A stretch of 64,000 bases of DNA from a phage, in the sequence record PZ476263.1. The stretch is one strand, 5' to 3'. The notes under the pieces are model-generated. The model ran no database searches. It was not told the DNA's origin and was given only the letters and a program-made list of their open reading frames with translations. The position numbers and the translations under genes are program-made. Positions within the stretch are counted from its first letter, which is position 1. The number at the start of each line of letters is the position of its first letter. Below are positions 3,128-45,213 of this stretch, one piece after another.

Positions 3128-4174
3128 TTAGCTTACGATATTTGCAAGCAGTTGTGCACGTTTTTCTTTCGGCAACAAGTTGACACGTCCACGGCGCTGC
3201 TGGCCTGTTTTCTTGTTACGATAACGAACGTATTTACCGAGGTTTGTATAATGGAAGCCATCTTCAACCCATTCAGACATGTCCACCAGATCGTCAGTGT
3301 ACAGATCGAAGTTCGGAAGTCGATTGTCCCAAGCCATAAGGATTTCATAAAGCTCCTGGTTAGAAAGAACATCGTACATGTTGTAGTCTTTCATTTCATC
3401 CCAAGCTTCCATATTACCTTTTAAGCATTCTGCCCAAAGCTTATGACCTGCAAACTTACCATGCTTTGATTTCTTATATTTACTACACAGCTTATCTGTC
3501 AGATATTCCAGTTTGTTGGAAGTAAATGCAAATGTTGCTTTTGCAATTTGTAGAGTGTCGATCATTCGATAATTCGAAGGCTTATCATAACCATTCAAAA
3601 TAAATCGTGCATTGATCTTCTTCATATCAAATTTCTTAATGTTGTGACCAACAACCACATCAGCATCGTCTAGCAGCGACCAAAGATCAGGCATTAATGT
3701 TGCATCGCTCTCTGATTCATAATTTTCACGAATATCACGATAGATGATCTCTTCTGAATCTGCCCATTTCGCAACGAAGGACATGATATACCAATCCGAC
3801 TGCAACTGATTAAGGCCAATGTTGTTATTCCAAAGGCTCCAGCAATGACCCAGTAGAGGCGCTGTCTCGATATCAATAAACAAGATTCGGGCACGATTAT
3901 AAGAGAATTTACGATTATGGTCTTGCAGTTTAAAGTCCACAGTGTTCTTAGCTGTGGCTGCAAACGCTTCTTGATCCGCCATGAATCGATCATATTCAGA
4001 AAGAAGATCTTGAACTGAACTTACACCCTGTTTTTCAACTTCTCGACGCAACATATTTCGAACTGTAGATTCTTGAGATTCTTTACCCAACTGTCGGGCA
4101 ACTTCACGTTGAGACATACCGTGCTTCATCAGATCCAGAACTTGCTCAACAGTAAAAGTTACTTTATTAGACAT
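3128..4174 (-). CDS. DEDDy-type 3'-5' exonuclease with N-terminal helix-turn-helix domain
   Basis: Exo motifs FIDIETAP, VVGHNIKKFDMKKI, YNMYDV; N-terminal MSQREVARQLG HTH-like segment. Confidence 0.55.
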   Translation of the reverse strand: MSNKVTFTVEQVLDLMKHGMSQREVARQLGKESQESTVRNMLRREVEKQGVSSVQDLLSEYDRFMADQEAFAATAKNTVDFKLQDHNRKFSYNRARILFIDIETAPLLGHCWSLWNNNIGLNQLQSDWYIMSFVAKWADSEEIIYRDIRENYESESDATLMPDLWSLLDDADVVVGHNIKKFDMKKINARFILNGYDKPSNYRMIDTLQIAKATFAFTSNKLEYLTDKLCSKYKKSKHGKFAGHKLWAECLKGNMEAWDEMKDYNMYDVLSNQELYEILMAWDNRLPNFDLYTDDLVDMSEWVEDGFHYTNLGKYVRYRNKKTGQQRRGRVNLLPKEKRAQLLANIVS

Positions 4175-4971: not shown

Positions 4972-5572
4972 TAATTCCCTCCAAAGCCAGAGCCATTAAA
5001 AACTCCCCGTGTGTAGGAGCTTCAGGATCATCAAAGTATTGATCCATACCTTTTCGATAAAGACTTACAGGGAAATTTATATTTTCAAACAAACTATGGC
5101 CTGTGTGATCCTTATACTTGCTTGAAACACCCTCTTCAATATCTTCCAAAATGCCTCTTCCAAATTTTGAAGAGTTCAGGGCTATACGGATAAGGAAAGA
5201 ATCCTTACCTTCCTTTTTAACATTGTTCTTTATAATGCCTTCCAATGCGTGCTTATCATTTATTGCTTTTAATCCAAGCCGAGTTACGATCATTTCATCA
5301 AAATATTTTCCTTTGAGATGATTCCAGAATGACCATTGAGAGGTACAGATACTTGAGATAGTAATCTCCTTCCCACCTTGATAATCAAAAACTTTTAAAT
5401 CATACCCACCATAAGCCCTTTCGGCTTCATAACCAATATCTTCAAGAGACTTCTTTAAACGTGGGATGATATGCCCACGCTCAATAGTATTCCAGCAAAT
5501 TATTACTTTATTTACCTTTTTAAGTTTAATATCCGTTTCGCTCAAGATAACACCTCCCGATAAGAAAAGCAT
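4910..5572 (-). CDS. hypothetical protein
   Basis: 220 aa ORF; start may be downstream of the annotated one because of overlap with the next gene. Confidence 0.35.
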   Translation of the reverse strand: MLFLSGGVILSETDIKLKKVNKVIICWNTIERGHIIPRLKKSLEDIGYEAERAYGGYDLKVFDYQGGKEITISSICTSQWSFWNHLKGKYFDEMIVTRLGLKAINDKHALEGIIKNNVKKEGKDSFLIRIALNSSKFGRGILEDIEEGVSSKYKDHTGHSLFENINFPVSLYRKGMDQYFDDPEAPTHGEFLMALALEGINASTQIEEEAVQEAIIRSKG

Positions 5573-6149
5573 CTGCTAAATCTGTCGCACCACCATTCTT
5601 TCCACTTTTGGTATACCCTTTTAGGAAATCTGGTTGAAGACTTTCACAGACCTTCATCATTTCATCTTTGCCCATTTTGATCTTGACCATCTTCGTCCCT
5701 TTATCATTCATGACCTCCTGCTCTTCACCTGGCAACTTATCACGCGCCCAAGATTTAACCGAAGTTGGTGCAACAGTATGTATGTTTTGCATAGTATACC
5801 CAGAACGGAGCAGTGTCAACTGAATACAGAAAAATAATCCTGCGAGATCTCTCGTTGCATTGCCTGCGGATCCGAAACTAAGAGATTCAAGTACAATATG
5901 CTCAACTTCAAATGATACACAAAGTTCAAGGATACGTCCAGAGATATATTCCATCTGCTCAGCTGGATTTTCAAAATACATTTGCCAATCTTTCGCATTG
6001 GACGACCCTGTAGTCTTCATAACTTCCTTAAAGATCGGTTCACCATTATCAAAAATTACACAAGCGCAGGATGCCATACTCTGATCAATCGATAATAGTT
6101 TCATCTTCTTCTCCTTTTGTCTCTTCGTCAAGGTAATGGTATTGATCAA
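5526..6149 (-). CDS. RuvC-like (RNase H fold) nuclease, putative
   Basis: LLSIDQSMAS (N-terminal catalytic Asp), HIVLESLSFG, GGATDLADAFLIG resembling RuvC carboxylate motifs. Confidence 0.4.
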   Translation of the reverse strand: MINTITLTKRQKEKKMKLLSIDQSMASCACVIFDNGEPIFKEVMKTTGSSNAKDWQMYFENPAEQMEYISGRILELCVSFEVEHIVLESLSFGSAGNATRDLAGLFFCIQLTLLRSGYTMQNIHTVAPTSVKSWARDKLPGEEQEVMNDKGTKMVKIKMGKDEMMKVCESLQPDFLKGYTKSGKNGGATDLADAFLIGRCYLERNGY

Positions 6150-6411
6150 TCAGAAAAACATAGTTTTTAATTTCACCATCCATATAGACCATGAAGGTAA
6201 CGTATTTCTCGTCGTAGAATGGATCTCCTACAACATAGACCTGACATACCTTATCGATACGATTATCGTACCATTGCACTCGCCAAGGCTCTTCGATCAT
6301 AGTCCAAGGACCTTCTACCTTGTAAATCTGGCGACCAGCGCCAGTTACGATAGAGGAGCGGATCTTATCCGCTTCCATTACATCATCAAAGCTTTTAGAA
6401 AAATCTGACAT
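6085..6411 (-). CDS. hypothetical protein
   Basis: 108 aa ORF. Confidence 0.35.
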   Translation of the reverse strand: MSDFSKSFDDVMEADKIRSSIVTGAGRQIYKVEGPWTMIEEPWRVQWYDNRIDKVCQVYVVGDPFYDEKYVTFMVYMDGEIKNYVFLIDQYHYLDEETKGEEDETIID

Positions 6412-7520
6412 TAAATCCCCACACGTTTCAGAGTAGATGCTAAAGTTGTCTTATCATTTTCTGTACGCTTCATATACACGCATTGGAAAATAATAGATGC
6501 CCATTGTCCCGCTGAATATTTACGTGGAATACCCATATGATCAACGTATTCAACACCGTCAGGGAACCAAGTTTTATACTGATCAATGATCGCCATCCAC
6601 ATCGATTTTTCATCAACACAAGGAGAAATAACCTGGAAAGCAGAAGTCTCACCAAATCGAATACCCTCAAATGTCTGATAAGGCTTAACGTTATCCGCAG
6701 AATCCCCAAACAACATTTGGTAACCGAAGAATTTTTTACCCCAACCTTTCACTTTTCCTGATTCCATCCAAATATCCCCCATAGAATCATCAATAAGCCA
6801 AAGCTCAGGATGCTTCCAACTACGTTCAGTAGGATCACGCATTGTATTAAAAAGCAGTGACGGAACCTGTACCTGATCCTTATCAAAGGATGCCACAATA
6901 TGACTGAACTTACCAGTCTTTTTGTAATTTAAATATCCCTTGTATCCAAGCATAGAAAGGTAATCATCTGCCTCGATACCATCGATAACGATAGCCCCAT
7001 ACTTTTTCTGCACATATCGTCGAGTTTCTCCAAGCAGCAAAGGACGAAGAGAATCTTCACGGTTACCTTTATAGATCTCCGGTGTAGGCAATGCCAATCG
7101 GAAGTTACCGCTCCCGCCGAGAACACCAAGGCCGTTTGACGATCCAACGTGCTCAAGTAATGCGTTGATCTTTACTTTCAAGAGATGCAGACAGTTCTCT
7201 ACTGGCTCTGGAGTTTGCTTCTCTATAATTTCAAAGTCATCACGGGTCCAAGGTTTAAATTCCTTACCTTTTGCCACGGCTTTCGCTTCCATGTTGATAT
7301 TCTGATCTTTAAGCCAACCACCAACGACATTTTTCTGTCGGCCCCAAAACTCTGTTTTGTTCTTAAATTCCTTTTCTCGTCCCGTACCTTTATGCCGTGC
7401 AATGATCGTTCGTTTTTCTGCACCTGCGGCAGCTACGAAACACGTTTGATCGAGGTCTAAAGCAACAACAACGTTGTCTTCAACAATGCCTGACCAATCT
7501 TCAACTAATGGATAACCCAT
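6411..7520 (-). CDS. 5'-3' exonuclease / flap endonuclease-like protein
   Basis: VIDGIEADDYL and FGDSADNVKP resemble FEN/5'-exonuclease metal-binding motifs. Confidence 0.45.
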   Translation of the reverse strand: MGYPLVEDWSGIVEDNVVVALDLDQTCFVAAAGAEKRTIIARHKGTGREKEFKNKTEFWGRQKNVVGGWLKDQNINMEAKAVAKGKEFKPWTRDDFEIIEKQTPEPVENCLHLLKVKINALLEHVGSSNGLGVLGGSGNFRLALPTPEIYKGNREDSLRPLLLGETRRYVQKKYGAIVIDGIEADDYLSMLGYKGYLNYKKTGKFSHIVASFDKDQVQVPSLLFNTMRDPTERSWKHPELWLIDDSMGDIWMESGKVKGWGKKFFGYQMLFGDSADNVKPYQTFEGIRFGETSAFQVISPCVDEKSMWMAIIDQYKTWFPDGVEYVDHMGIPRKYSAGQWASIIFQCVYMKRTENDKTTLASTLKRVGI

Positions 7521-20900: not shown

Positions 20901-20914
20901 TTTGGTCTTTCGGT

Positions 20915-20923
20915 GATAAAATA
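20915..20923 (+). promoter_or_regulatory. late-type promoter element GATAAAATA (extended -10-like TGnTAAAAT)
   Basis: gTGATAAAATAc 17 nt upstream of spanin start; same motif recurs upstream of other late operons. Confidence 0.45.
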
Positions 20924-20939
20924 CTCAAAGGAGGTAATC

Positions 20940-21302
20940 ATGCCAGATTTTAAAAAATATTTATTCATTGCTATATTCATAGTGTTCTTAATTTCATCTG
21001 CTAAGCTTTATCTTAATCATGTTGAATCAGTAGGTTACGAAAAAGGTTTCAATGTTGCTAACTCTGCTTGGGTAAAAAAGGCAGGGGAGTACAAAAAGAA
21101 AATTGACGATACATATGAAGAAAACAAGCGTCTTAACGAGGAGCTTTCCCGATCCAATCAGGAAAAGATAAAGGATGAAAAGGCAAAAGAAGAAAAAATT
21201 ACCGATATGCAGATCGAATACTACAAGTCTGAAAAAGGTAAGGATGTCTTTGACAATAATGAAATAATTGACATATACAACGAATCCTTGGGGGTAAAAT
21301 GA
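20940..21302 (+). CDS. i-spanin-like protein (N-terminal TM helix + periplasmic coiled coil)
   Basis: MPDFKKYLFIAIFIVFLISSAKLYL TM followed by charged coiled-coil; ATG at 20940 after AGGAGG RBS. Confidence 0.5.
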   Translation: MPDFKKYLFIAIFIVFLISSAKLYLNHVESVGYEKGFNVANSAWVKKAGEYKKKIDDTYEENKRLNEELSRSNQEKIKDEKAKEEKITDMQIEYYKSEKGKDVFDNNEIIDIYNESLGVK

Positions 21303-21598
21303 GAAAAATATTTATAGCTTTCTTCTTTTGCTTTTTACTTTCCGGTTGTCAATCAGCAGAAATCTGTGGCCCTACGGAAGAAGTAACTATTGAGAAGATT
21401 CTTCCTAAACCTGATCTTGAACTCCTTGTCAAAGAAAAGGAAAAGAAGCTCATCCAGAAGGGATCTACTAATGCAGACGTTGGAAAGGTCATGAGTGATA
21501 ACAATCTTCGTTCCAATCGTATAGAGCGCCGTTGGGAAGGCTTAAGGACTTACGTTTGCAACAGTTTCAAAAATATCCCTAAAGAATACTGCGATTAA
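21299..21598 (+). CDS. o-spanin-like outer-membrane lipoprotein
   Basis: signal peptide with lipobox FLLSGC; ATGA overlap with upstream i-spanin-like gene. Confidence 0.5.
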   Translation: MRKIFIAFFFCFLLSGCQSAEICGPTEEVTIEKILPKPDLELLVKEKEKKLIQKGSTNADVGKVMSDNNLRSNRIERRWEGLRTYVCNSFKNIPKEYCD

Positions 21599-21695: not shown

Positions 21696-22050
21696 ATGTC
21701 TGCTACATTCGCACCTGCGAGTCGCAAGCAACAAATGGTTCTCGAATCTACAGCACAGATTATGGTAATAGGTGGTGCAGCAGGATCAGGTAAATCATAC
21801 CTTTTACAGTTGATGCCTTTGCTTATTGTAAACGACCCTAAAACAGCCTGCATCATGTTTCGTCGTACTGTACCGCAGATTCGTGGACAAGGTGGCTTGT
21901 TTGACAAAGCTAAAGATATTTATAACCAGCTGCCTCCGGTAGTTAAGCCGAAGTTTAAAGAGAACGAGATGACTGCTACATTCCCTAACGGAGCAACCGT
22001 TAAGTGGCAGTCTATGCAACACGTAAGTGATAAATACGACATCCAGGGGT
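21696..22050 (+). CDS. terL: terminase large subunit, exon 1 (Walker A ATPase segment)
   Basis: IGGAAGSGKSY Walker A; frame terminates at TAA 22050-22052 inside predicted intron 1; predicted 5' splice site after U22050. Confidence 0.6.
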
Positions 22051-22960
22051 AAAAATTTCCTGCCCATCGTATCTTAATCGGTGAAACTCTGTTATAATAA
22101 GTACAGACAATACCGAGATCCATTACCTGAAATGACAGTAGGGAGATATGATGAAAAAATTTGAAATTGTTCCAAGCAAACCTGAATTTTCCGTAAGTGA
22201 AGACGGGCTGATTATGTTTACCTCTACAGGTACTATTCTTAAGCCGTATGTTGATAAGGATGGTTACCACAGGGTTAGAAATTTCTCTGCTGGAGGTAAA
22301 TCTCATTACATCGCCGTTCATCGCGCCGTTGCTGAGGTTTTTGTTAAAAACCCTAACCCAAAAGTGTTTAAGATTGTTAATCACTTGGATAATGTTAAGA
22401 GCAACAATCATAAAACCAATTTGGAATGGACAACCGAATCATTAAACCGAGTTCATGCAGTTCATGCCAACGGTACAGCATCTGTTAGAAACAATGTTAA
22501 ATTTACAGAAGGTCAAGTCAGAAAGGTGTGTGAACTTTTGAGCTTGGGCTATCGGATAGTTGATATTGTGAAACTTACAGGCGTTGATAGATTCAATGTG
22601 ATGGCAATTAGAAGCGGAAAATCTTGGGTTCAGATCTCTTGTGAGTTTGAAACTTTAAAAGTAGAAAGAAAAGATACACTGTCTGAAAAGACGATTCTTT
22701 GGATTAAAGACCAAATTAATCGCCAAAGGTCAGATGATGAAATACTTTTAATGTCGGTAAGACTTACAAAAGAAGAGCTTGAAAGAGCAAAGAAGATTAT
22801 TTCATTGATGGATTGTAACGACTAATGCTGATGAGTGTAAGCATGTAGGGCCAAGCGGTCCGAAACGATACGCCAAGGATGGAAGATATAGTCTGAACTA
22901 TATGGTGACATATAGCTGCTTAAGCAGGGTTAAGATTAGCGATCTTAATCGAACACAATG
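22051..22960 (+). mobile_element. group I intron 1 (about 910 nt) with internal HNH homing endonuclease ORF
   Basis: S element AAGATATAGTC at 22883-22893, R-like AACGACTAA at 22818-22825, P9 hairpin CTATATG-GTGA-CATATAG (GNRA loop), candidate IGS GCCC near 5' end, 3' end ...GAACACAATG. Confidence 0.6.
22148..22825 (+). CDS. intron-encoded HNH homing endonuclease
   Basis: DGYHRV...HRAVAEVF...NHLDNVKSNNHKTNLEW HNH core; lies wholly between terminase exons. Confidence 0.65.
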   Translation: MMKKFEIVPSKPEFSVSEDGLIMFTSTGTILKPYVDKDGYHRVRNFSAGGKSHYIAVHRAVAEVFVKNPNPKVFKIVNHLDNVKSNNHKTNLEWTTESLNRVHAVHANGTASVRNNVKFTEGQVRKVCELLSLGYRIVDIVKLTGVDRFNVMAIRSGKSWVQISCEFETLKVERKDTLSEKTILWIKDQINRQRSDDEILLMSVRLTKEELERAKKIISLMDCND

Positions 22961-23014
22961 TGGAATTTACATTTATAGGTGTGGACGAAGGCACTCAGTT
23001 TGAGTGGGAGCAGT
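22961..23014 (+). CDS. terL: terminase large subunit, exon 2 (54-nt micro-exon encoding Walker B-like FTFIGVDEGTQFEWEQ)
   Basis: in-frame segment between two intron cores; hydrophobic stretch + DE typical of terminase Walker B. Confidence 0.5.
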
Positions 23015-23341
23015 TAATCTAGCTGCCTCGTACAGTAATGTACGATGAGAAATTCTTGTGAATTGCTGGAAAATCCTTAGAGCTTGTAAAACTACAACAT
23101 GACCTGCAAAGGTGAGTGTGAATGTTAAAAATTTACAAGATTGGACGATCAGCCTCCAAGCCTCTTTACGAGAGGAAGGTTCAACGACTAGCCGAAAGGC
23201 GTAGATCATAAGCAAATGATGATCGAAGTGCAAGACCCCTACCTTATTGGTAGGGTGAAGATATAGTCTGATCTGCATGGTAACATGCAGCAGTGCTTGA
23301 GTGCACGGCAACGAACTTGCGATCCGTTGCGAACATAACAG
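23015..23341 (+). mobile_element. group I intron 2 (about 327 nt, ORF-less)
   Basis: IGS-like GCTGC pairing with exon GCAGU; R-like GTTCAACGACTAG 23179-23191; S AAGATATAGTC 23258-23268; P9 CTGCATG-GTAA-CATGCAG; 3' end ...GAACATAACAG. Confidence 0.55.
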
Positions 23342-24420
23342 TAGAATACATGATGTCTCGTCTTCGTTCCAGTTCTTCTTACCCTTCACGAATGGTAATT
23401 AGTTGTAACCCTGATCCTGATCATTATCTTCGTAAGATGGTTGATTGGTATCTCGATAAGGATGGTTATCCTGATCCTACAAAGGATGGAGTCATTCGAT
23501 ATTTCGTTCGAGTTGATGACCAATACATGTGGGGCGAATCAGTAGAAGAGCTTAAGAAGCGGTACGGTAAGAAATGTAAGCCTGTTTCTTTTACATTTAT
23601 ATCTTCTACTATTTACGATAACCCACCAATGCTTATTAACAACCCAGACTATCTAGCACAGCTGGAAGGTCTTAATGAGGTTGACAGAGCAAGACTGTTA
23701 CACGGCAACTGGGATGCACGTCCTCAGGGTGCTAACTATTTTAAACGTTCTTTTCTTAAAGAGGTTGATGTTCTTCCTTTAGGTGTAGATAAGGTTAGAT
23801 CATACGATAAAGCAGGAACTGAACGTTCTACAGGTAATAAAACACCTGACTTTACAGCCGGAATCGGTGTGGCGAGAGATCAGGACGGAATTTATTATCT
23901 TTTTGGCGATTATTGTGAAGAGTTTGTTGATGAAGGTGATTGGTCTACTGGCAACCTTGGTAGGTTCTGTAAGAAAGCTGGTGAACGAGATACGATCATT
24001 ATGAAACAAGCAATTCATGACGGTGATGATGTTAGAATAATATTCCCTGTTGACCCTGGTCAAGCGGGTATTGCTGAATTCACTACATCTTCCCGAGAAT
24101 TATTAAATCAAGGATTCATTGTTGAGAAAGACCCAACTCCTGGTAACAAGAAGAAGCTTGTACGCTTCTCTCCGTTTGCTAACCTTGCTCAGAACGGATT
24201 TGTTAGGATTGTTAAAAAGTCTTTCCCTTTGGATACCTATGAAGCATTAATGAAAGAGCTTGAATCTTTCAATGGTGAAAGGTCAACAGGGACACGTAAA
24301 GATGACTGGGTGGATGCTATCTCAACCGGAATAAATTTCCTTGAGAAAACAGAAATAGTCAGGGCTGTTACAATACCACGACCTTCTGCCCCAACACTTT
24401 ATTCGAAGTATCGACGATAA
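23342..24420 (+). CDS. terL: terminase large subunit, exon 3 (nuclease domain)
   Basis: continues ...EYMMSRLRSSSSYPSRMVISCNPDP...; acidic nuclease motifs DQDGIYYLFGDY, DPGQAGIA, DDWVDAISTG. Confidence 0.6.
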
Positions 24421-40007: not shown

Positions 40008-41423
40008 ATGGCTTATGAAGATAAGGTAGTTGACGTCGAGGTAACTCTTGGTACTCAGCCTATTGATACCGTAGGGTTCGAAACCCCGATGTTCTTAGCA
40101 GTTCATAATAACTTCCCAGAACGTGTACGTTTTTATGGATCATTGGAAAGTCTGGTAGGTGATGGTTTTGCAGTTGGTTCAGCTGCTTATCAGTTTGCCT
40201 CGAACGTATTTGCAGGTTCTTTTGCTGCAAGTCTGGTAGGTATCGGACGTATGTCTCTGGCAAGTTCTCGTGTAGATTTTACCGGAACAGTCAATGAAGA
40301 ACGCGTCGTTGTAAATATTACCATCAATGGTACTATTAAAGCAGTAACTATTTCGCTGCAAGTTGGAAACACCCCAGGTCAAGTTGCTACCGCTCTTGCA
40401 ACTGGTATTAATGATGATGTAGACCTCGCAGGTCGAGTTGTTGCTACTGTAGAAAACAGCACTGTTGTAGTGATCCAGTCTGCTGAGAAAGTTAGCATCG
40501 GGAAAGGTGAGGGCACTTATAAGATCGTAAACACCTCTGCTGAAACTGTTGCTACTGTATTGCCTCAGGTTCTGGCTGAAAACCACAACTGGTACTTCCT
40601 GTCCCATGAACAGCGTTCTGATGCAGATATCGTTGCTGCTGCCGAATTTGCTCAGGCAAACTACAAACTGCACGTTTATAACTCCAGCGATTCTGATGCA
40701 CTGGCGGCTGCTAACCAAAGCACCTCTGTCTTTGACACGCTGAAATCTTTGGGTTATAACTCCCTCGGGACCTACGACAAAGATGCAGATGTGGAATATA
40801 CCGAAGGTTCTGTAATCGGTGCAATGGCTGCAAACGATCCTTCTTACGGTGACTCTATCCACCTGAAGACAATGCCTGGTATGGCTCCTTCTACCATCTC
40901 TGAAACTCAGCGTATGAACGCATGGGGACGTAACGCAAACATTTATCGTGCAATGTACGGTACTAACAGCTATATCGAAGGTCGTACTTCCAGCGGTCAG
41001 TATGTTGACGTTATTCGCTTCTCCCACTGGCTGAAGTTCCGTATGGAAGAATCTGTATTTGGTTACATGAAGCGTCGTTCTGATCAAGGTCAGTCCATGA
41101 AGATGAGTGATGAAGATCTTCCGGTTCTGCGTTCTATCCTGTTTAACAACCCAATCAACATCGGTATTCGTAACGGTGGTATCTTGACGGGTTATGACAG
41201 TGTGAACCGTGTAAGCTACGATCCGATTATCACCATCCCACGTCGTGCTGAAATCCCGACTAACGATTTAGCTAACCGTATCCTGCGTGATGTTAAAGTT
41301 GAAGTAGTTTACAACAACTCTCTGCATTACGTCAAAATCCGCGCTGCTGTGGTTCTTGATCGTCCGGCAAATACGACTCAGAGCACCCAAGCTCCTTTCT
41401 CTAACTCTTCTGTAGGGGTGTAA
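40008..41423 (+). CDS. tail sheath protein (putative, P2 FI-like position)
   Basis: 471 aa gene followed by 160-aa tube-size gene, frameshifted chaperone pair and tape measure. Confidence 0.5.
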   Translation: MAYEDKVVDVEVTLGTQPIDTVGFETPMFLAVHNNFPERVRFYGSLESLVGDGFAVGSAAYQFASNVFAGSFAASLVGIGRMSLASSRVDFTGTVNEERVVVNITINGTIKAVTISLQVGNTPGQVATALATGINDDVDLAGRVVATVENSTVVVIQSAEKVSIGKGEGTYKIVNTSAETVATVLPQVLAENHNWYFLSHEQRSDADIVAAAEFAQANYKLHVYNSSDSDALAAANQSTSVFDTLKSLGYNSLGTYDKDADVEYTEGSVIGAMAANDPSYGDSIHLKTMPGMAPSTISETQRMNAWGRNANIYRAMYGTNSYIEGRTSSGQYVDVIRFSHWLKFRMEESVFGYMKRRSDQGQSMKMSDEDLPVLRSILFNNPINIGIRNGGILTGYDSVNRVSYDPIITIPRRAEIPTNDLANRILRDVKVEVVYNNSLHYVKIRAAVVLDRPANTTQSTQAPFSNSSVGV

Positions 41424-41426
41424 TAA

Positions 41427-41909
41427 ATGGCTTCGAATCCTAAGTTAATTAGTCTCCAGGCGTATGACCCAGCGAAAGTTCTGATCTTTATTGGTGGACA
41501 ACGTGTTTCTGGATTTGCTGCCGATACCAAGGTCGTAATTTCTCGTAACAACGACAACATCACTCCGCTGTCTGGTGTGGATGGGGAGATCAGTTCTGCA
41601 ATTGTTCGTGATAACTCTGGTGTCGTAACTATTTCTCTCCAGAACACTTCCGTTTGGAATGGTTATCTGGCACAATGGCAGTTGCAAGCTCGTGTCACCG
41701 GACTCGTGTACTTCCCAATCCAGATTGAAGGTTCTCAGGGTCTGTCTCTGAACACCTTTGGATGGGTACAACGTCAACCGGACTTGACATATGGCTCAGA
41801 AGTTGGTCAAATGGACTGGGAAATCGGTGTTGTCGATGCTCAACTGTCCGCTGATCAGATTCAGGGAGTTGCAGCTGGCATTACTGGTATTCTTGGTTTA
41901 GATCAGTAA
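41427..41909 (+). CDS. tail tube protein (putative, P2 FII-like position)
   Basis: 160 aa, immediately after sheath-size gene. Confidence 0.5.
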   Translation: MASNPKLISLQAYDPAKVLIFIGGQRVSGFAADTKVVISRNNDNITPLSGVDGEISSAIVRDNSGVVTISLQNTSVWNGYLAQWQLQARVTGLVYFPIQIEGSQGLSLNTFGWVQRQPDLTYGSEVGQMDWEIGVVDAQLSADQIQGVAAGITGILGLDQ

Positions 41910-41984: not shown

Positions 41985-42458
41985 GTGCAAGGTTTTAAAA
42001 TTAAAAAGAGTACAGATATTATCCTTTGCGGTGGTAAACGATTCACTATTTATCATTGGTCACCTACTCAAGTGATCCGTAACATGCCTAAGATTGGTAA
42101 ACTTGTTGCTGTTCCTCTGGGAACTATGGCAGGCTCTGCAATCTCTGGTGGGCAAGATTTTCAAGACGCTGTACCAACAGCAATCCTTTACATTCTGGAT
42201 CGTATCGATGAAGGCGGTCTGGATATAATCAACCTTCTTTTAGATGGTGTTGAAGTAGATAGTATGGGTGGCCCAATCGATATCGATGAAGTGTTCGATG
42301 GTCACGTTGAAGATTTGTTTAAATTACTGGCTGAAATTATTCAAGTGAACTACGGCTGTTTTTTCGGGAAGAGCGGTTTCGGGACAATCGAAAATCTCCT
42401 TCAGAAATTTGGTCTGGTTCGGAAGGTGAACGAGCTGGATCAGACGGAAGAAGCCTGA
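41985..42458 (+). CDS. tail assembly chaperone (short form)
   Basis: 157 aa upstream of tape measure; contains slippery T_TTT_TTC near its 3' end. Confidence 0.5.
   Translation: MQGFKIKKSTDIILCGGKRFTIYHWSPTQVIRNMPKIGKLVAVPLGTMAGSAISGGQDFQDAVPTAILYILDRIDEGGLDIINLLLDGVEVDSMGGPIDIDEVFDGHVEDLFKLLAEIIQVNYGCFFGKSGFGTIENLLQKFGLVRKVNELDQTEEA
42359..42365 (+). other. candidate -1 programmed ribosomal frameshift site (T_TTT_TTC)
   Basis: heptamer in zero frame X_XXY_YYZ; -1 frame is open from here through 42727. Confidence 0.45.
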
Positions 42459-42484
42459 GGCCGCTTAGTACCGTAGAGAGGGCT

Positions 42485-42727
42485 TTGGACTACGCCAGAA
42501 GAAATTCCAGCTTGAAATGGTATGACTATCTTTATTTCCGTGTCATGGAACGCTTTAAGGGCGTTAATGAGTTATCTATCGAAAGTGGTGACATGGAGGA
42601 TCTTCTTAAAAAGAATGAATATCTTGATATTCAGGATTATCTGGAAGGTGCACAAGAGAAAGAGAAGGAATACGAGCGGCAACGTCAAGAACAAGAAGCC
42701 CTGTTAAAACGGAGAAGAGGTAAATAA
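42485..42727 (+). CDS. tail assembly chaperone frameshift extension (E+E'/GT-like) or independent small ORF
   Basis: -1 frame relative to upstream chaperone; no ATG start (TTG); continuous with the -1 frame back to the slippery site. Confidence 0.4.
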   Translation: MDYARRNSSLKWYDYLYFRVMERFKGVNELSIESGDMEDLLKKNEYLDIQDYLEGAQEKEKEYERQRQEQEALLKRRRGK

Positions 42728-42780
42728 AAAGGGCTGGGGTCGAGAGACTCCGGCCTTTATTTTTATTATGAGGAGTTAAA

Positions 42781-45213
42781 ATGGCTGTAGAAGTAATTGC
42801 TACAACAAAGAACCGTGTCATATTTGAAACTGACAAAGGGTCTTATAAAAAGGCTCGTGATGAGATAAAGAAACTCTCTAACGAGTGGAAGAAGGCATCT
42901 ACGGAAGCCACCACCACATCTAGAAACTCTCCATCTGAGGTTTACAAGAAGTCTGCAAGAGAGATGCGACTTGTAAGTAAAAGATTGGCGGAGACTAGAA
43001 AACGGGAAGAGAAGCGAGAATCGGATTACAGGATCGCACTTGCCAAAAAGGAAGCGAAAGCAAAAGAGGCGGTAGCCAAAATATCTGCTTCGAGAATAAA
43101 ACAGCAGGTAAAAAGCTTAACTGCTGCAAGCCCTGGTTCAGCAGAGATGAGAAGATTCTACCAGCAGCAAGAAAAGGCTGCAAGAGCTGCATCGCGTTCT
43201 GCAAATAGGGCTGCTACGCCATTGCCACCTTTTAATGTTCAACGTGTGGAAGCTGCAAACCAGTTACTTTCCCGTGGACAACAACAGGCAGGTTCTGGTA
43301 TTGTTGGAGATCCAAATAGTCGTTTCCGCCCTGAACTGATTGCTGCACAGAACCGAGCTATGCAACAAAGTTCTCGTAATCAGGAAAAGTTACGTAAACA
43401 GCAAACAAGGGAAGAAGAAAGGCAGAAGATCAATGCTGCAAGGGCTGCTGCAAGGGTAGATGATGTTTCTGCACAACAGCGTATTCGATTAAGTTCTAAA
43501 TATGGAAGAGGCTACGCAGGTGCTTTGGGTAAAGATTCCGAAGGAAGGGGGATTGAGGATCTTAACAGACAATTCCGCGCTGGGACATTAACATCGGGTC
43601 AATACAGACAGAGCATCCAAGCATTAGAAAGACAGTTTAGAAGTGCCCAAGCAAGTGCAGGATCGTTTTCCTCTACTTTGGGGGATATTCGTTCTGGTCT
43701 TGTAAGTGCAACAGCAGCATATAGCGTATTCGCCGCAGGTGCTTCTGTTACTAGACAAGGACAATTCTTTGAAGGTATAAACGCCACCAGTTTACTTATT
43801 TCTGACTCTGCGGAAGAAGCAGGTCAAAGGGTTAAATTTGTAAGAGAAGAAGCTTATCGTTTAGGTCTTAACTTAAAAGAGGCATCTCAAGGCTTCACTC
43901 AGTTAGCGATTTCTGCCGAAGGTCAGATTTCAAAATCTGAAACCAATGAATTGTTCAGTGCATTCTCCGAATACTCAACGGCCTTGCAGGTTGATCCTGT
44001 TAGATATCAACGTGGTATTACAGCTATCCAACAGATCCTTGGTAAAGGCCAGGTAATGGCTGAAGAACTTAAAGGTCAGTTGTCGGAAGCGATACCTGGT
44101 TCTCTTCAGGTATTCTTAAAAGCAACTCAAGAGGCTTTTAATGATTCCTCTATAGATGTTGCTAAATTCCTGAAGTTAATGGAAGATGGTGAATTAAAAG
44201 CTTCTAAAATTATACCTCTTGTTGGTAAATATTATGCTGAGGCTGCTAGAAGGGGCGGTGCTCTTGATAAAGCTCTTGAAAGCAACCGAGTAGCTTATCA
44301 ACGTCTAAACCAGACTTTTGCAGAGTTCCAGAACAGAATATTCCAGGGTGGATTTGGAGAACAATTAACCCGAGTTTTCAACAATTTAGCCACTATTTTG
44401 TCAAGTAACGGTAATGTTGCAACAACTATCGGAAGATTCTTTGGTAATGTAATCGAAGGTTTTACCGACATGGTTCTCGAAGTCCATGACAACCTGGTTC
44501 TTCTTGATCGTGTCGTTACTTACTACTTCAAGAAGATTGGTGTAGAAGGTGATACCTTGAGACAGGTTTTCGACTGGGGTTCTTATCTACTCGGTATCGG
44601 CCTGTTTATCGGGGGTCTGACTAAGGTGTTTAACATCTTAGCGAAGATCGCAGGATTGAAAGGGGCCTTAAAAGAAATCCGTGGAACTCTCGGTGGTGAC
44701 CTTGCTACTGGTGGGAAAACCGGAACAGGTGCTAACACAACGGCTTCCGGCGGCGCAGGTACTGGTGGTACTACAGGAAAAACCAGTGTCGCAGGTAGAT
44801 TCAGCCAGTTGGGCAAACTCGGTAAGTTATTTGGCCTTGGTACGCTTTATTCCGCAGGATCAGAGATTAATGACCGCTTTATTCAGAGTGGTGAAAATCG
44901 TCTTGCAAATGCTGGGGTTGATACAGAAGCTTTCAAAAACACCTATGGCGTGACTCCGCAACCTGTAGGGCTTACGGATGTATTCAGAGAACTATTTGGC
45001 GGTTCTAAGAATATCACTGTAGATACTAATGCGATAAGCACCCCATCGGGAATAAGACCTTCTGGATTCCCTCTGACCGCTCCGCAAGAGCCACCTGAAG
45101 GTAAGATCACTGTTGAGATTAAGGCTGGCGAAATTCGTCAGTACATCAAAGCAGTTGTTGATGAAGAAAATAGATTCAATATCAACTTACTTACTCAGGG
45201 CGGTAACCAATAA
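42781..45213 (+). CDS. tail tape measure protein
   Basis: 810 aa, Ala/Gln/Arg-rich helical N-terminal half, Gly-rich hydrophobic segment, position after chaperones. Confidence 0.6.
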   Translation: MAVEVIATTKNRVIFETDKGSYKKARDEIKKLSNEWKKASTEATTTSRNSPSEVYKKSAREMRLVSKRLAETRKREEKRESDYRIALAKKEAKAKEAVAKISASRIKQQVKSLTAASPGSAEMRRFYQQQEKAARAASRSANRAATPLPPFNVQRVEAANQLLSRGQQQAGSGIVGDPNSRFRPELIAAQNRAMQQSSRNQEKLRKQQTREEERQKINAARAAARVDDVSAQQRIRLSSKYGRGYAGALGKDSEGRGIEDLNRQFRAGTLTSGQYRQSIQALERQFRSAQASAGSFSSTLGDIRSGLVSATAAYSVFAAGASVTRQGQFFEGINATSLLISDSAEEAGQRVKFVREEAYRLGLNLKEASQGFTQLAISAEGQISKSETNELFSAFSEYSTALQVDPVRYQRGITAIQQILGKGQVMAEELKGQLSEAIPGSLQVFLKATQEAFNDSSIDVAKFLKLMEDGELKASKIIPLVGKYYAEAARRGGALDKALESNRVAYQRLNQTFAEFQNRIFQGGFGEQLTRVFNNLATILSSNGNVATTIGRFFGNVIEGFTDMVLEVHDNLVLLDRVVTYYFKKIGVEGDTLRQVFDWGSYLLGIGLFIGGLTKVFNILAKIAGLKGALKEIRGTLGGDLATGGKTGTGANTTASGGAGTGGTTGKTSVAGRFSQLGKLGKLFGLGTLYSAGSEINDRFIQSGENRLANAGVDTEAFKNTYGVTPQPVGLTDVFRELFGGSKNITVDTNAISTPSGIRPSGFPLTAPQEPPEGKITVEIKAGEIRQYIKAVVDEENRFNINLLTQGGNQ

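Follow-up and report, generated by a model that had tools for sequence, protein, structure and literature searches.

A predicted programmed -1 ribosomal frameshift in the tail assembly chaperone gene of phage sequence PZ476263.1 and its relatives

A stretch of phage DNA of 64,000 nucleotides (nt; sequence record PZ476263.1), referred to here in its entirety as the window, was found to carry a tail assembly chaperone gene that is overlapped on the same strand by a second open reading frame (ORF), the two lying directly upstream of the gene for the tape measure protein. A programmed -1 ribosomal frameshift at a U_UUU_UUC site in this gene is predicted to give rise to an abundant short form of the chaperone of 157 amino acids (aa), TAC-N, and a rare long form of 247 aa, TAC-NC, and the probability of this reading, judged from the window and related sequences, was put at about 0.85. 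The locus is an unannotated case of an ordinary, well-known phage device.

A reading made from the letters of the window and their ORFs (the sequence-only reading) had placed a T_TTT_TTC heptamer in the zero frame about 30 codons before the stop of the 157-aa chaperone, and this was borne out. The zero-frame codons around the site are AAC TAC GGC TGT TTT TTC GGG AAG and, as the codons of the chaperone are in phase with GGC TGT TTT TTC GGG, the T_TTT_TTC sequence (coordinates 42359..42365, + strand) is an in-frame X_XXY_YYZ heptamer within tgT TTT TTC (Cys-Phe-Phe, codons 125–127, with TTC as codon 127). The zero-frame TGA is located 30 codons past the heptamer at 42456–42458. The -1 frame had also been described as open through the next ORF, and frame analysis agreed, placing 13 stops between 41996 and 42332 and the next, a TAA, at 42725. 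There is no stop between 42332 and this TAA, which gives the -1 frame 130 open codons starting at 42335, 8 codons ahead of the heptamer, and T_TTT_TTC is the sole in-frame canonical heptamer within the 42335–42458 overlap. The -1 frame extension (42365..42727, + strand) comprises 120 codons and the TAA, and joins 41985–42365 to form the predicted fusion, join(41985..42365,42365..42727), so that frame arithmetic (127 + 120 = 247 aa) reproduced the ~247-aa product and CFF/REERF junction anticipated earlier. The predicted junction reads ...NYGCFF/REERFR..., with LLAEIIQVNYGCFFR as the predicted trans-frame junction peptide, and the tryptic peptide predicted to be diagnostic of the short form is LLAEIIQVNYGCFFGK.

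To assess the role of chance, every ORF in the window with a length of 100 aa or more was considered. In these ORFs an in-frame X_XXY_YYZ heptamer occurs 87 times, or once in about 256 codons, and the heptamer by itself is therefore unremarkable. However, the median length of the -1 extensions of the 87 heptamers is 4 codons and the 90th percentile is 23, and the 120 codons that follow T_TTT_TTC at 42359 are the longest among them. At the density of -1 stops seen upstream (13 stops in about 117 codons), the probability of 130 open codons is ~2e-7. A second frameshift candidate, A_AAT_TTT at 22058 (in frame, minus strand) with an 82-codon -1 extension, was judged to be spurious, as it runs antisense to the genes for terminase and HNH and no PHROG family matches it.

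The short form, TAC-N, is encoded in the zero frame at 41985..42458 (+ strand; 157 aa) from a GTG start at 41985, and AGGAG was read in the sequence 7 nt upstream of this start. The ORF matched Pfam family PF21822 (Phage_TAC_15) over model positions 1–127 of 127 (E = 1e-21; 78.2 bits, cut-off 22) and PHROG 3840, 'tail assembly chaperone' (E = 1.8e-62), and on these family matches the predicted product of 41985–42458 is a tail assembly chaperone. All 43 homologues of the chaperone in a collection of 5.8 billion proteins carry PF21822 and have lengths of 153–161 aa.

Conservation was examined in related loci. Twenty loci were fetched from GenBank/RefSeq, and 18 of these, from Certrevirus, Avunavirus, Henunavirus, Seunavirus, Mydovirus, Vequintavirus, Phapecoctavirus, Justusliebigvirus and KLEP7, were analysed frame by frame. 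They span six genera of Vequintavirinae, two genera of Stephanstirmvirinae and KLEP7 and, together with 39 loci from IMG/VR, make up a set of 57 related loci; the loci of Barbavirus and KPP10 were examined separately, outside the 57. The DNA of the chaperone region is about 79% identical to that of Escherichia phages A7_1, A5-4, A73, W70, UPEC06 and LTH01 (unclassified Vequintavirinae), and about 73% identical to that of the Certrevirus group (phiTE, CR8, CR9). Searches of phage records with tblastn recovered the chaperone from 362 records and the -1 extension from 352. Alignments with the closest genera begin at the first residue of the extension.

All 57 loci have an in-frame slippery heptamer at the homologous place, and in each of them the -1 frame beyond it is open. 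In the GenBank/RefSeq loci, the -1 frame opens 3–12 codons ahead of the heptamer, and in the 37 IMG/VR loci with an uncut contig the -1 frame runs 82–92 codons beyond the zero-frame stop, compared with 4–20 codons for the +1 frame. TTTTTTC is the heptamer in 55 of the 57 loci (17 of the 18 from GenBank/RefSeq and 38 of the 39 from IMG/VR), so the check on conservation of the heptamer in relatives that the sequence-only reading had proposed gave a positive result. The remaining two loci, KLEP7 and L042, have C_CCT_TTT, and in Stephanstirmvirinae the TTTTTTC is embedded in C_CCT_TTT_TTC.

Sequencing errors are common at homopolymer runs, and the two frames might in principle result from a sequencing or assembly indel in the T-run that split one gene, or the downstream ORF might be a dead remnant. 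However, the same two-frame arrangement is present in 57 independently sequenced loci, and the -1 domain is conserved across subfamilies. The zero-frame tail past the heptamer (GFGTIENLLQKFGL...LDQ) is also conserved as protein, and the overlap must therefore code in both frames, which excludes a sequencing artefact. An artefact or decay, to which next to no probability was assigned, is effectively refuted by these sequence comparisons.

To separate constraint on nucleotides from constraint on amino acids, the codon alignment of 21 distinct Vequintavirinae chaperone genes was used to calculate the fraction of codon pairs for the same amino acid that differ. This fraction was 0.00 at TGT TTT TTC (630 pairwise comparisons) versus 0.51–0.57 across the body of the gene, and was 0.19 in the seven codons following the heptamer. 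The Asn, Tyr and Gly codons flanking the heptamer vary synonymously. As synonymous change is absent at the heptamer and its flanks are variable, it is the nucleotides that have been selected, and not only Cys-Phe-Phe. The slip site and its relationship to the frames have been kept beyond what the amino acid sequence requires.

Further slip sites were found in the two more distant lineages. In Rheinheimera phages of Barbavirus, G_GGA_AAG is present three codons downstream of the aligned position, and in Pseudomonas phage KPP10 a G_GTT_TTT is located on the aligned Phe codon; both precede a homologous -1 extension. The length of the linker differs between lineages and the frame is kept throughout. 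The cassette appears to be old, and the comparison of sequences suggests several rounds of turnover at its slip site (T_TTT_TTC, C_CCT_TTT, G_GGA_AAG and G_GTT_TTT).

This variety of sites also bears on whether the same fusion could be made via transcriptional slippage, which is employed in some bacterial and viral genes (PMC5009743) and would here require RNA polymerase to leave out one U, or to insert two extra, at the T6 run, after which ribosomes would read the altered mRNA in the usual way. The run in the window is homopolymeric, and T6 is found in nearly all relatives, with CCCTTTTTTC in Stephanstirmvirinae. However, the C_CCT_TTT (with only five T), G_GGA_AAG and G_GTT_TTT sites of other relatives are heteropolymeric; such sites fit tandem tRNA re-pairing and argue against polymerase slippage on a homopolymer. 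The T-run also keeps to the X_XXY_YYZ phase in every case, a restriction that slippage by the polymerase would not impose, and bacterial RNA polymerase usually needs a run longer than six residues to slip appreciably. Transcriptional slippage was therefore rated as very improbable here.

A second conserved element, the motif GGTTTC (42375..42380, + strand), lies 9 nt 3' of the heptamer and encodes Gly-Phe in frame 0 while forming part of Arg-Phe-Arg (CGG TTT CGG) in frame -1. Its distance from the slip site is 9 nt, but 6 nt in Stephanstirmvirinae. The GGTTT portion is invariant (alignment A1) and the last C is replaced by A or G only in rV5-like phages, KLEP7 and locus L052. Neither the GGT nor the TTC codon shows any synonymous variation in the 21 Vequintavirinae genes, and GGTTTC is also found in KPP10 (L061, coordinates about 4029–4034). 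Conservation of this motif may reflect dual coding (GF in frame 0 and RFR in frame -1) or an unrecognised RNA signal.

When the trans-frame products were reconstructed and aligned, three parts could be distinguished. The first is a conserved junction, NYG(C/P)FF-xx-RFR, and the second is a linker rich in Gly, Ser, Asp and Pro that is variable in both sequence and length but in which the frame is never broken. The third is a conserved C-terminal domain of ~70 aa, with the pattern NSSLxW(Y/F)D(Y/F)L..R...F.G...L...DM..LLK.NEYLDI(Q/E)(D/E)(Y/F), followed by a charged tail. The C-terminal part of the extension was matched by PHROG 8811 and 10409, which are families of 'unknown function'. Searches of PDB sequences with a chaperone profile and with the extension gave only marginal matches (5ir0 'ORF19', E = 0.027; a designed repeat protein, E = 0.001), and a single-sequence AlphaFold model of the 120-aa extension had a mean pLDDT of 55, which makes it uninterpretable beyond 'mostly helical'.

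The conserved -1-frame residues (RFR, then ...LSTVERALDYARRNSSLKWYDYLYFRV...) begin 3–4 codons past the junction, upstream of all candidate starts for the downstream ORF. The mechanical call of this ORF begins at a TTG at 42485, with a GAGAGGG resembling a Shine–Dalgarno (SD) sequence 2–3 nt upstream, and the other in-frame candidates are TTG 42512, ATG 42545 and ATG 42593, each lacking an SD sequence. The claim that this ORF has no ATG of its own could thus be upheld in so far as none is present at its 5' end and none has an SD sequence, but in-frame ATG codons do occur at 42545 and 42593. No conserved translation start belonging to the second ORF was found. Across the records of relatives, the downstream ORF is annotated at 43, 51, 59–61 or 77–82 aa, or is absent, and the starts chosen by annotators are inconsistent because the conserved residues begin upstream of every candidate start.

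These observations are relevant to the possibility that the downstream ORF is a separate small gene of 60–80 aa, expressed from TTG 42485 or ATG 42545 through either independent initiation or termination-reinitiation, in which case the open -1 frame upstream of its start would be incidental. In each of the 22 public records inspected, the region is either blank or carries a separate small ORF, the Murica record annotates a ribosome binding site, and the SD-like GAGAGGG stands just ahead of TTG 42485. However, 2–3 nt is all that separates this element from the TTG, ATG 42545 has no SD sequence, and the annotated starts disagree even between close relatives, giving products of 43–82 aa. Conserved -1 residues, and a stop-free frame that differs in length, run from the heptamer over the supposed intergenic gap in 57 of 57 loci, and a separate gene also leaves unexplained why synonymous change is frozen at the heptamer and why other canonical slip sites have taken its place. 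A separate gene was accordingly rated as improbable, and a -1 frameshift remains the preferred explanation.

The chaperone locus is part of a myovirus tail module, in which the genes for sheath, tube, chaperone, the -1 ORF and tape measure protein are all on the + strand. The tail sheath gene (40008-41423, + strand) matches PHROG 205, and the gene directly upstream of the chaperone (41427..41909, + strand) encodes a tail tube protein of 160 aa (Pfam PF11681, KPP10_Orf10; PHROG 280). The tape measure protein, encoded at 42781..45213 (+ strand; 810 aa; Pfam PF20155, TMP_3; PHROG 5255, E = 9e-286), is the presumed client of the chaperone. Between the tube and tape measure genes there are two overlapping ORFs on the same strand, the chaperone ORF at 41985-42458 and the -1 ORF at 42335-42727.

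A strong terminator-like hairpin with a 13-base pair (bp) stem followed by a T-run, ATTTTTATTA, was found at 42729..42768 (+ strand), in the stretch that separates the -1 ORF from the tape measure gene. It sits in the middle of the tail operon, and the phiTE record annotates a terminator at the equivalent place. The hairpin may attenuate expression of the tape measure gene relative to those for sheath, tube and chaperone. In the window and most relatives, the tape measure gene begins about 55 nt past the -1 stop, unlike in phiTE (L003, coordinates 5370-6470), where phiTE_226 and phiTE_227 are inserted between the -1 ORF and terminator and the tape measure gene. The product of phiTE_227 resembles a protein of phage JSE.

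From the observed architecture and its conservation we infer the slip, the efficiency of slipping, the functions of the proteins and the role of a downstream helix. Most ribosomes on the chaperone mRNA would end at TGA 42456, releasing the 157-aa TAC-N. A minority would slip back by 1 nt, with the pair of tRNA-Phe molecules on UUU (P site) and UUC (A site) re-pairing to UUU and UUU, and reading would then resume at CGG 42365 and continue until TAA 42725. The resulting TAC-NC would consist of the TAC-N core, a variable linker rich in Gly, Ser and Asp and the conserved C-terminal domain of ~70 aa. If the proteins act as gpG/gpGT do in lambda, TAC-N and TAC-NC would both use their common N-terminal part to coat the tape measure protein, recruitment of the tube protein would fall to the C-terminal domain of the rarer TAC-NC, and a fixed frequency of slipping would set the ratio of TAC-N to TAC-NC. 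A long-range helix formed by 42371-42383 and 42454-42466 might act as a 3' stimulator. The arrangement agrees with all of the sequence-level features of a tail chaperone frameshift (Xu et al. 2004) that were tested here.

The closest precedent is a bioinformatic proposal from December 2025 of a conserved -1 frameshift at 'GTTTTT' in the chaperone locus of Vandenendeviridae and Andersonviridae (PMC12846349), and the window sequence TGTTTTTTC contains GTTTTT. That study analysed alignments from Vandenendeviridae and Andersonviridae, without a Vequintavirinae or Stephanstirmvirinae locus. The product of KPP10 ORF13 and the chaperone of the window are homologous (27% identity; pairwise BLASTP E = 3e-10), and both belong to PF21822. 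The slip site is on the aligned Phe codon (NYGCFF in the window, NFGSVF in KPP10), and the two loci also share the GGTTTC 9 nt downstream, the RFR that opens the -1 product and an extension that ends just before the tape measure gene. They differ in that the KPP10 site, G_GTT_TTT, is like that of T7 gene 10, whereas the T_TTT_TTC of the window is fully canonical, and the -1 extension is about 90–100 aa in KPP10 but 120 aa in the window. Judged by these sequence comparisons, the predicted slip site of the window is homologous to the 'GTTTTT' site proposed in 2025 and has the features by which that frameshift was defined.

The sequence-only reading had matched the locus to the G/GT arrangement of lambda and the E/E+E' arrangement of P2, and this was supported as a likeness of arrangement. 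The position of the genes upstream of the tape measure gene corresponds. Lambda is a siphovirus with the heptamer G_GGA_AAG, and its gpG and gpGT are likewise encoded by two overlapping ORFs directly upstream of the tape measure gene. P2, which makes gpE/gpE+E', is a myovirus and reportedly has the order sheath, tube, -1 frameshift chaperone and tape measure together with a T-rich slip site, and the window has the same gene order and a T-rich predicted slip site. However, a Pfam scan at E <= 0.1, which would reveal membership of the lambda gpG or P2 gpE families, gave PF21822 only, and gave no match for the -1 product. As the chaperone belongs to PF21822, outside the sequence families of the lambda and P2 proteins, the likeness to them is one of arrangement and presumed mechanism.

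The mechanism in lambda (Levin et al. 1993; Xu et al. 2004, 2013, 2014) and the X_XXY_YYZ rule are outlined in the review PMC5009743. According to the same outline, the shared N-terminal part of the lambda proteins binds the tape measure protein, the domain encoded by the frameshift recruits the tube subunit, and neither form is found in the virion (PMC5009743). The product ratio and binding partners have been established for lambda.

Gene 10A/10B of phage T7 (G_GUU_UUC) resembles the window locus in having a U-rich shift site with tRNA-Phe in the A site and an enterobacterial host. A long-range 3' effect on T7 frameshifting, as yet unexplained, has been described (PMC5009743), and the long-range helix predicted for the window is a loose parallel to it. 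However, gene 10 is a capsid gene with no homology to the window locus, and the long-range element of T7 is more than 200 nt away in a terminator.

The region 3' of the heptamer was examined for a structure that could stimulate frameshifting. In the first 55–60 nt, no local hairpin or pseudoknot that beats shuffled sequences was found in the window or its relatives (z from -2.4 to +2.0, mostly positive), and an Rfam scan of 42250-42800 gave only sub-threshold chance matches (L20 leader, 23.5 bits versus 58.7). However, the 105 nt past the heptamer (42366-42470) fold as one long irregular hairpin with a minimum free energy of -40.4 kcal/mol (z = -4.2), and none of 200 shuffles of this segment folded equally well. 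The 5' arm of the predicted helix, GAGCGGTTTCGGG (42371..42383, + strand), starts 5 nt past the heptamer, and the 3' arm, CCTGAGGCCGCTT (42454..42466, + strand), contains the zero-frame TGA at 42456-42458. In the predicted fold, the two arms form a basal stem of 13 bp in which GAGCGGUUUCGGG (42371-42383) pairs with CCUGAGGCCGCUU (42454-42466).

In most of the Vequintavirinae that are not rV5-like, the stop region is the best downstream partner for the 26 nt past the heptamer (rank 0–4 of 74 windows scanned), and this preference is seen in two distinct sequence classes. The RNAalifold consensus retained a 6-bp core with two covarying pairs (A-U/G-C versus G-C/A-U, plus a G-C/G-C variant). In this core, 93.6% of cells are paired, versus 20–54% when the 3' partner is slid, and its covariation score was matched by none of 500 shuffles. 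However, the covariation rests on about 2–3 independent substitution events, both arms are also protein-coding in two frames, and rV5-like phages show weak pairing while none was found for Stephanstirmvirinae. The covariation thus gives modest support for the helix. It is possible, though rather less than an even chance, that a conserved long-range helix tunes the frameshift, enclosing the whole of the ~95-nt dual-coding overlap, with the start of its 5' arm 5–6 nt past the heptamer and the stop codon contained in its 3' arm. If so, this would be an unusual geometry for a stimulator of a phage chaperone frameshift, and the helix could couple termination of the short form to the frequency of slipping. 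Lambda G/GT is not known to need a defined 3' structure.

Several points weigh against a programmed frameshift at this locus. U_UUU_UUC is not known to be among the most efficient slip sites of Escherichia coli, and the folding energy of the region downstream of it is significant only in the window, with z from -2.3 to +0.3 in relatives. The weak SD-like GAGAGGG before TTG 42485 may allow some independent initiation. A protein that spans the junction was absent among the 43 homologues found in the 5.8-billion-protein collection. Finally, T4-like phages reportedly produce the forms of their chaperone by means other than frameshifting (Vladimirov et al. 2022, cited in PMC12846349), which would also favour a separate gene.

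The lack of a junction-spanning protein in databases reflects annotation practice and not biology. A joined coding sequence for the fusion was not present in any of the 22 GenBank/RefSeq records inspected, and what comes after the chaperone in every one of them is either a gap or an orphan 'hypothetical protein' whose length is arbitrary. In the RefSeq records of slur16 and V18, the chaperone feature had seemed to cover the extension, but the region was found to be merely unannotated. The annotated chaperone of UPEC06 (L002, coordinates 2183-2554; 123 aa) is truncated at its 5' end, and one Klebsiella phage record labels the chaperone 'nucleotidyltransferase'. No published account of a chaperone frameshift in rV5, phi92, phiTE, PVP-SE1, Vequintavirinae, Stephanstirmvirinae or Phapecoctavirus was found in the literature. 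Neither the chaperone nor a frameshift is mentioned in papers on the proteomics of rV5 or the cryo-electron microscopy of phiTE and phi92, which is consistent with absence of these proteins from virions.

More than 350 deposited genomes carry the locus, including those of rV5-like, phiTE-like, PVP-SE1-like, Klebsiella Mydovirus and phi92-like phages, and several phages with the locus are candidates for therapy or biocontrol. Recognition of join(41985..42365,42365..42727) would provide a function for the orphan ORF, and the frameshift proposed for Vandenendeviridae and Andersonviridae would be extended to Vequintavirinae, Stephanstirmvirinae, Barbavirus and KLEP7-like phages. Understanding of how tail assembly chaperones work is unchanged by this finding.

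Chaperone loci were also encountered in about 20 records of 'Campylobacter phage' (host Campylobacter jejuni; e.g. GenBank accession numbers MG065652, MG065682, MG065672, MG065639 and MG065644). Their identity and alignment coordinates are the same as those of rV5-like or phi92-like phages of E. coli, suggesting that the hosts are mislabelled or that the records derive from contaminating coliphages.

Elsewhere in the window, the gene for the terminase large subunit (21696-24420, + strand) is split. The first piece (21696-22052) corresponds to positions 148–262 of PHROG 979 and the second (23293-24420, + strand) to positions 279–624. An ORF for an HNH endonuclease (22148-22825; PHROG 59) and a group I intron (RF00028; 22986-23290; 78.7 bits, gathering score 50; E = 7.5e-20) are located between the two pieces, and the intron match stops exactly where the second piece starts. 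A second, weak intron-like match was found at 22793-22915. Just upstream of the terminase gene, two ORFs with a 4-nt overlap (20913-21302 and 21299-21598, + strand) match the Rz-like spanin families PHROG 4297 and 1267.

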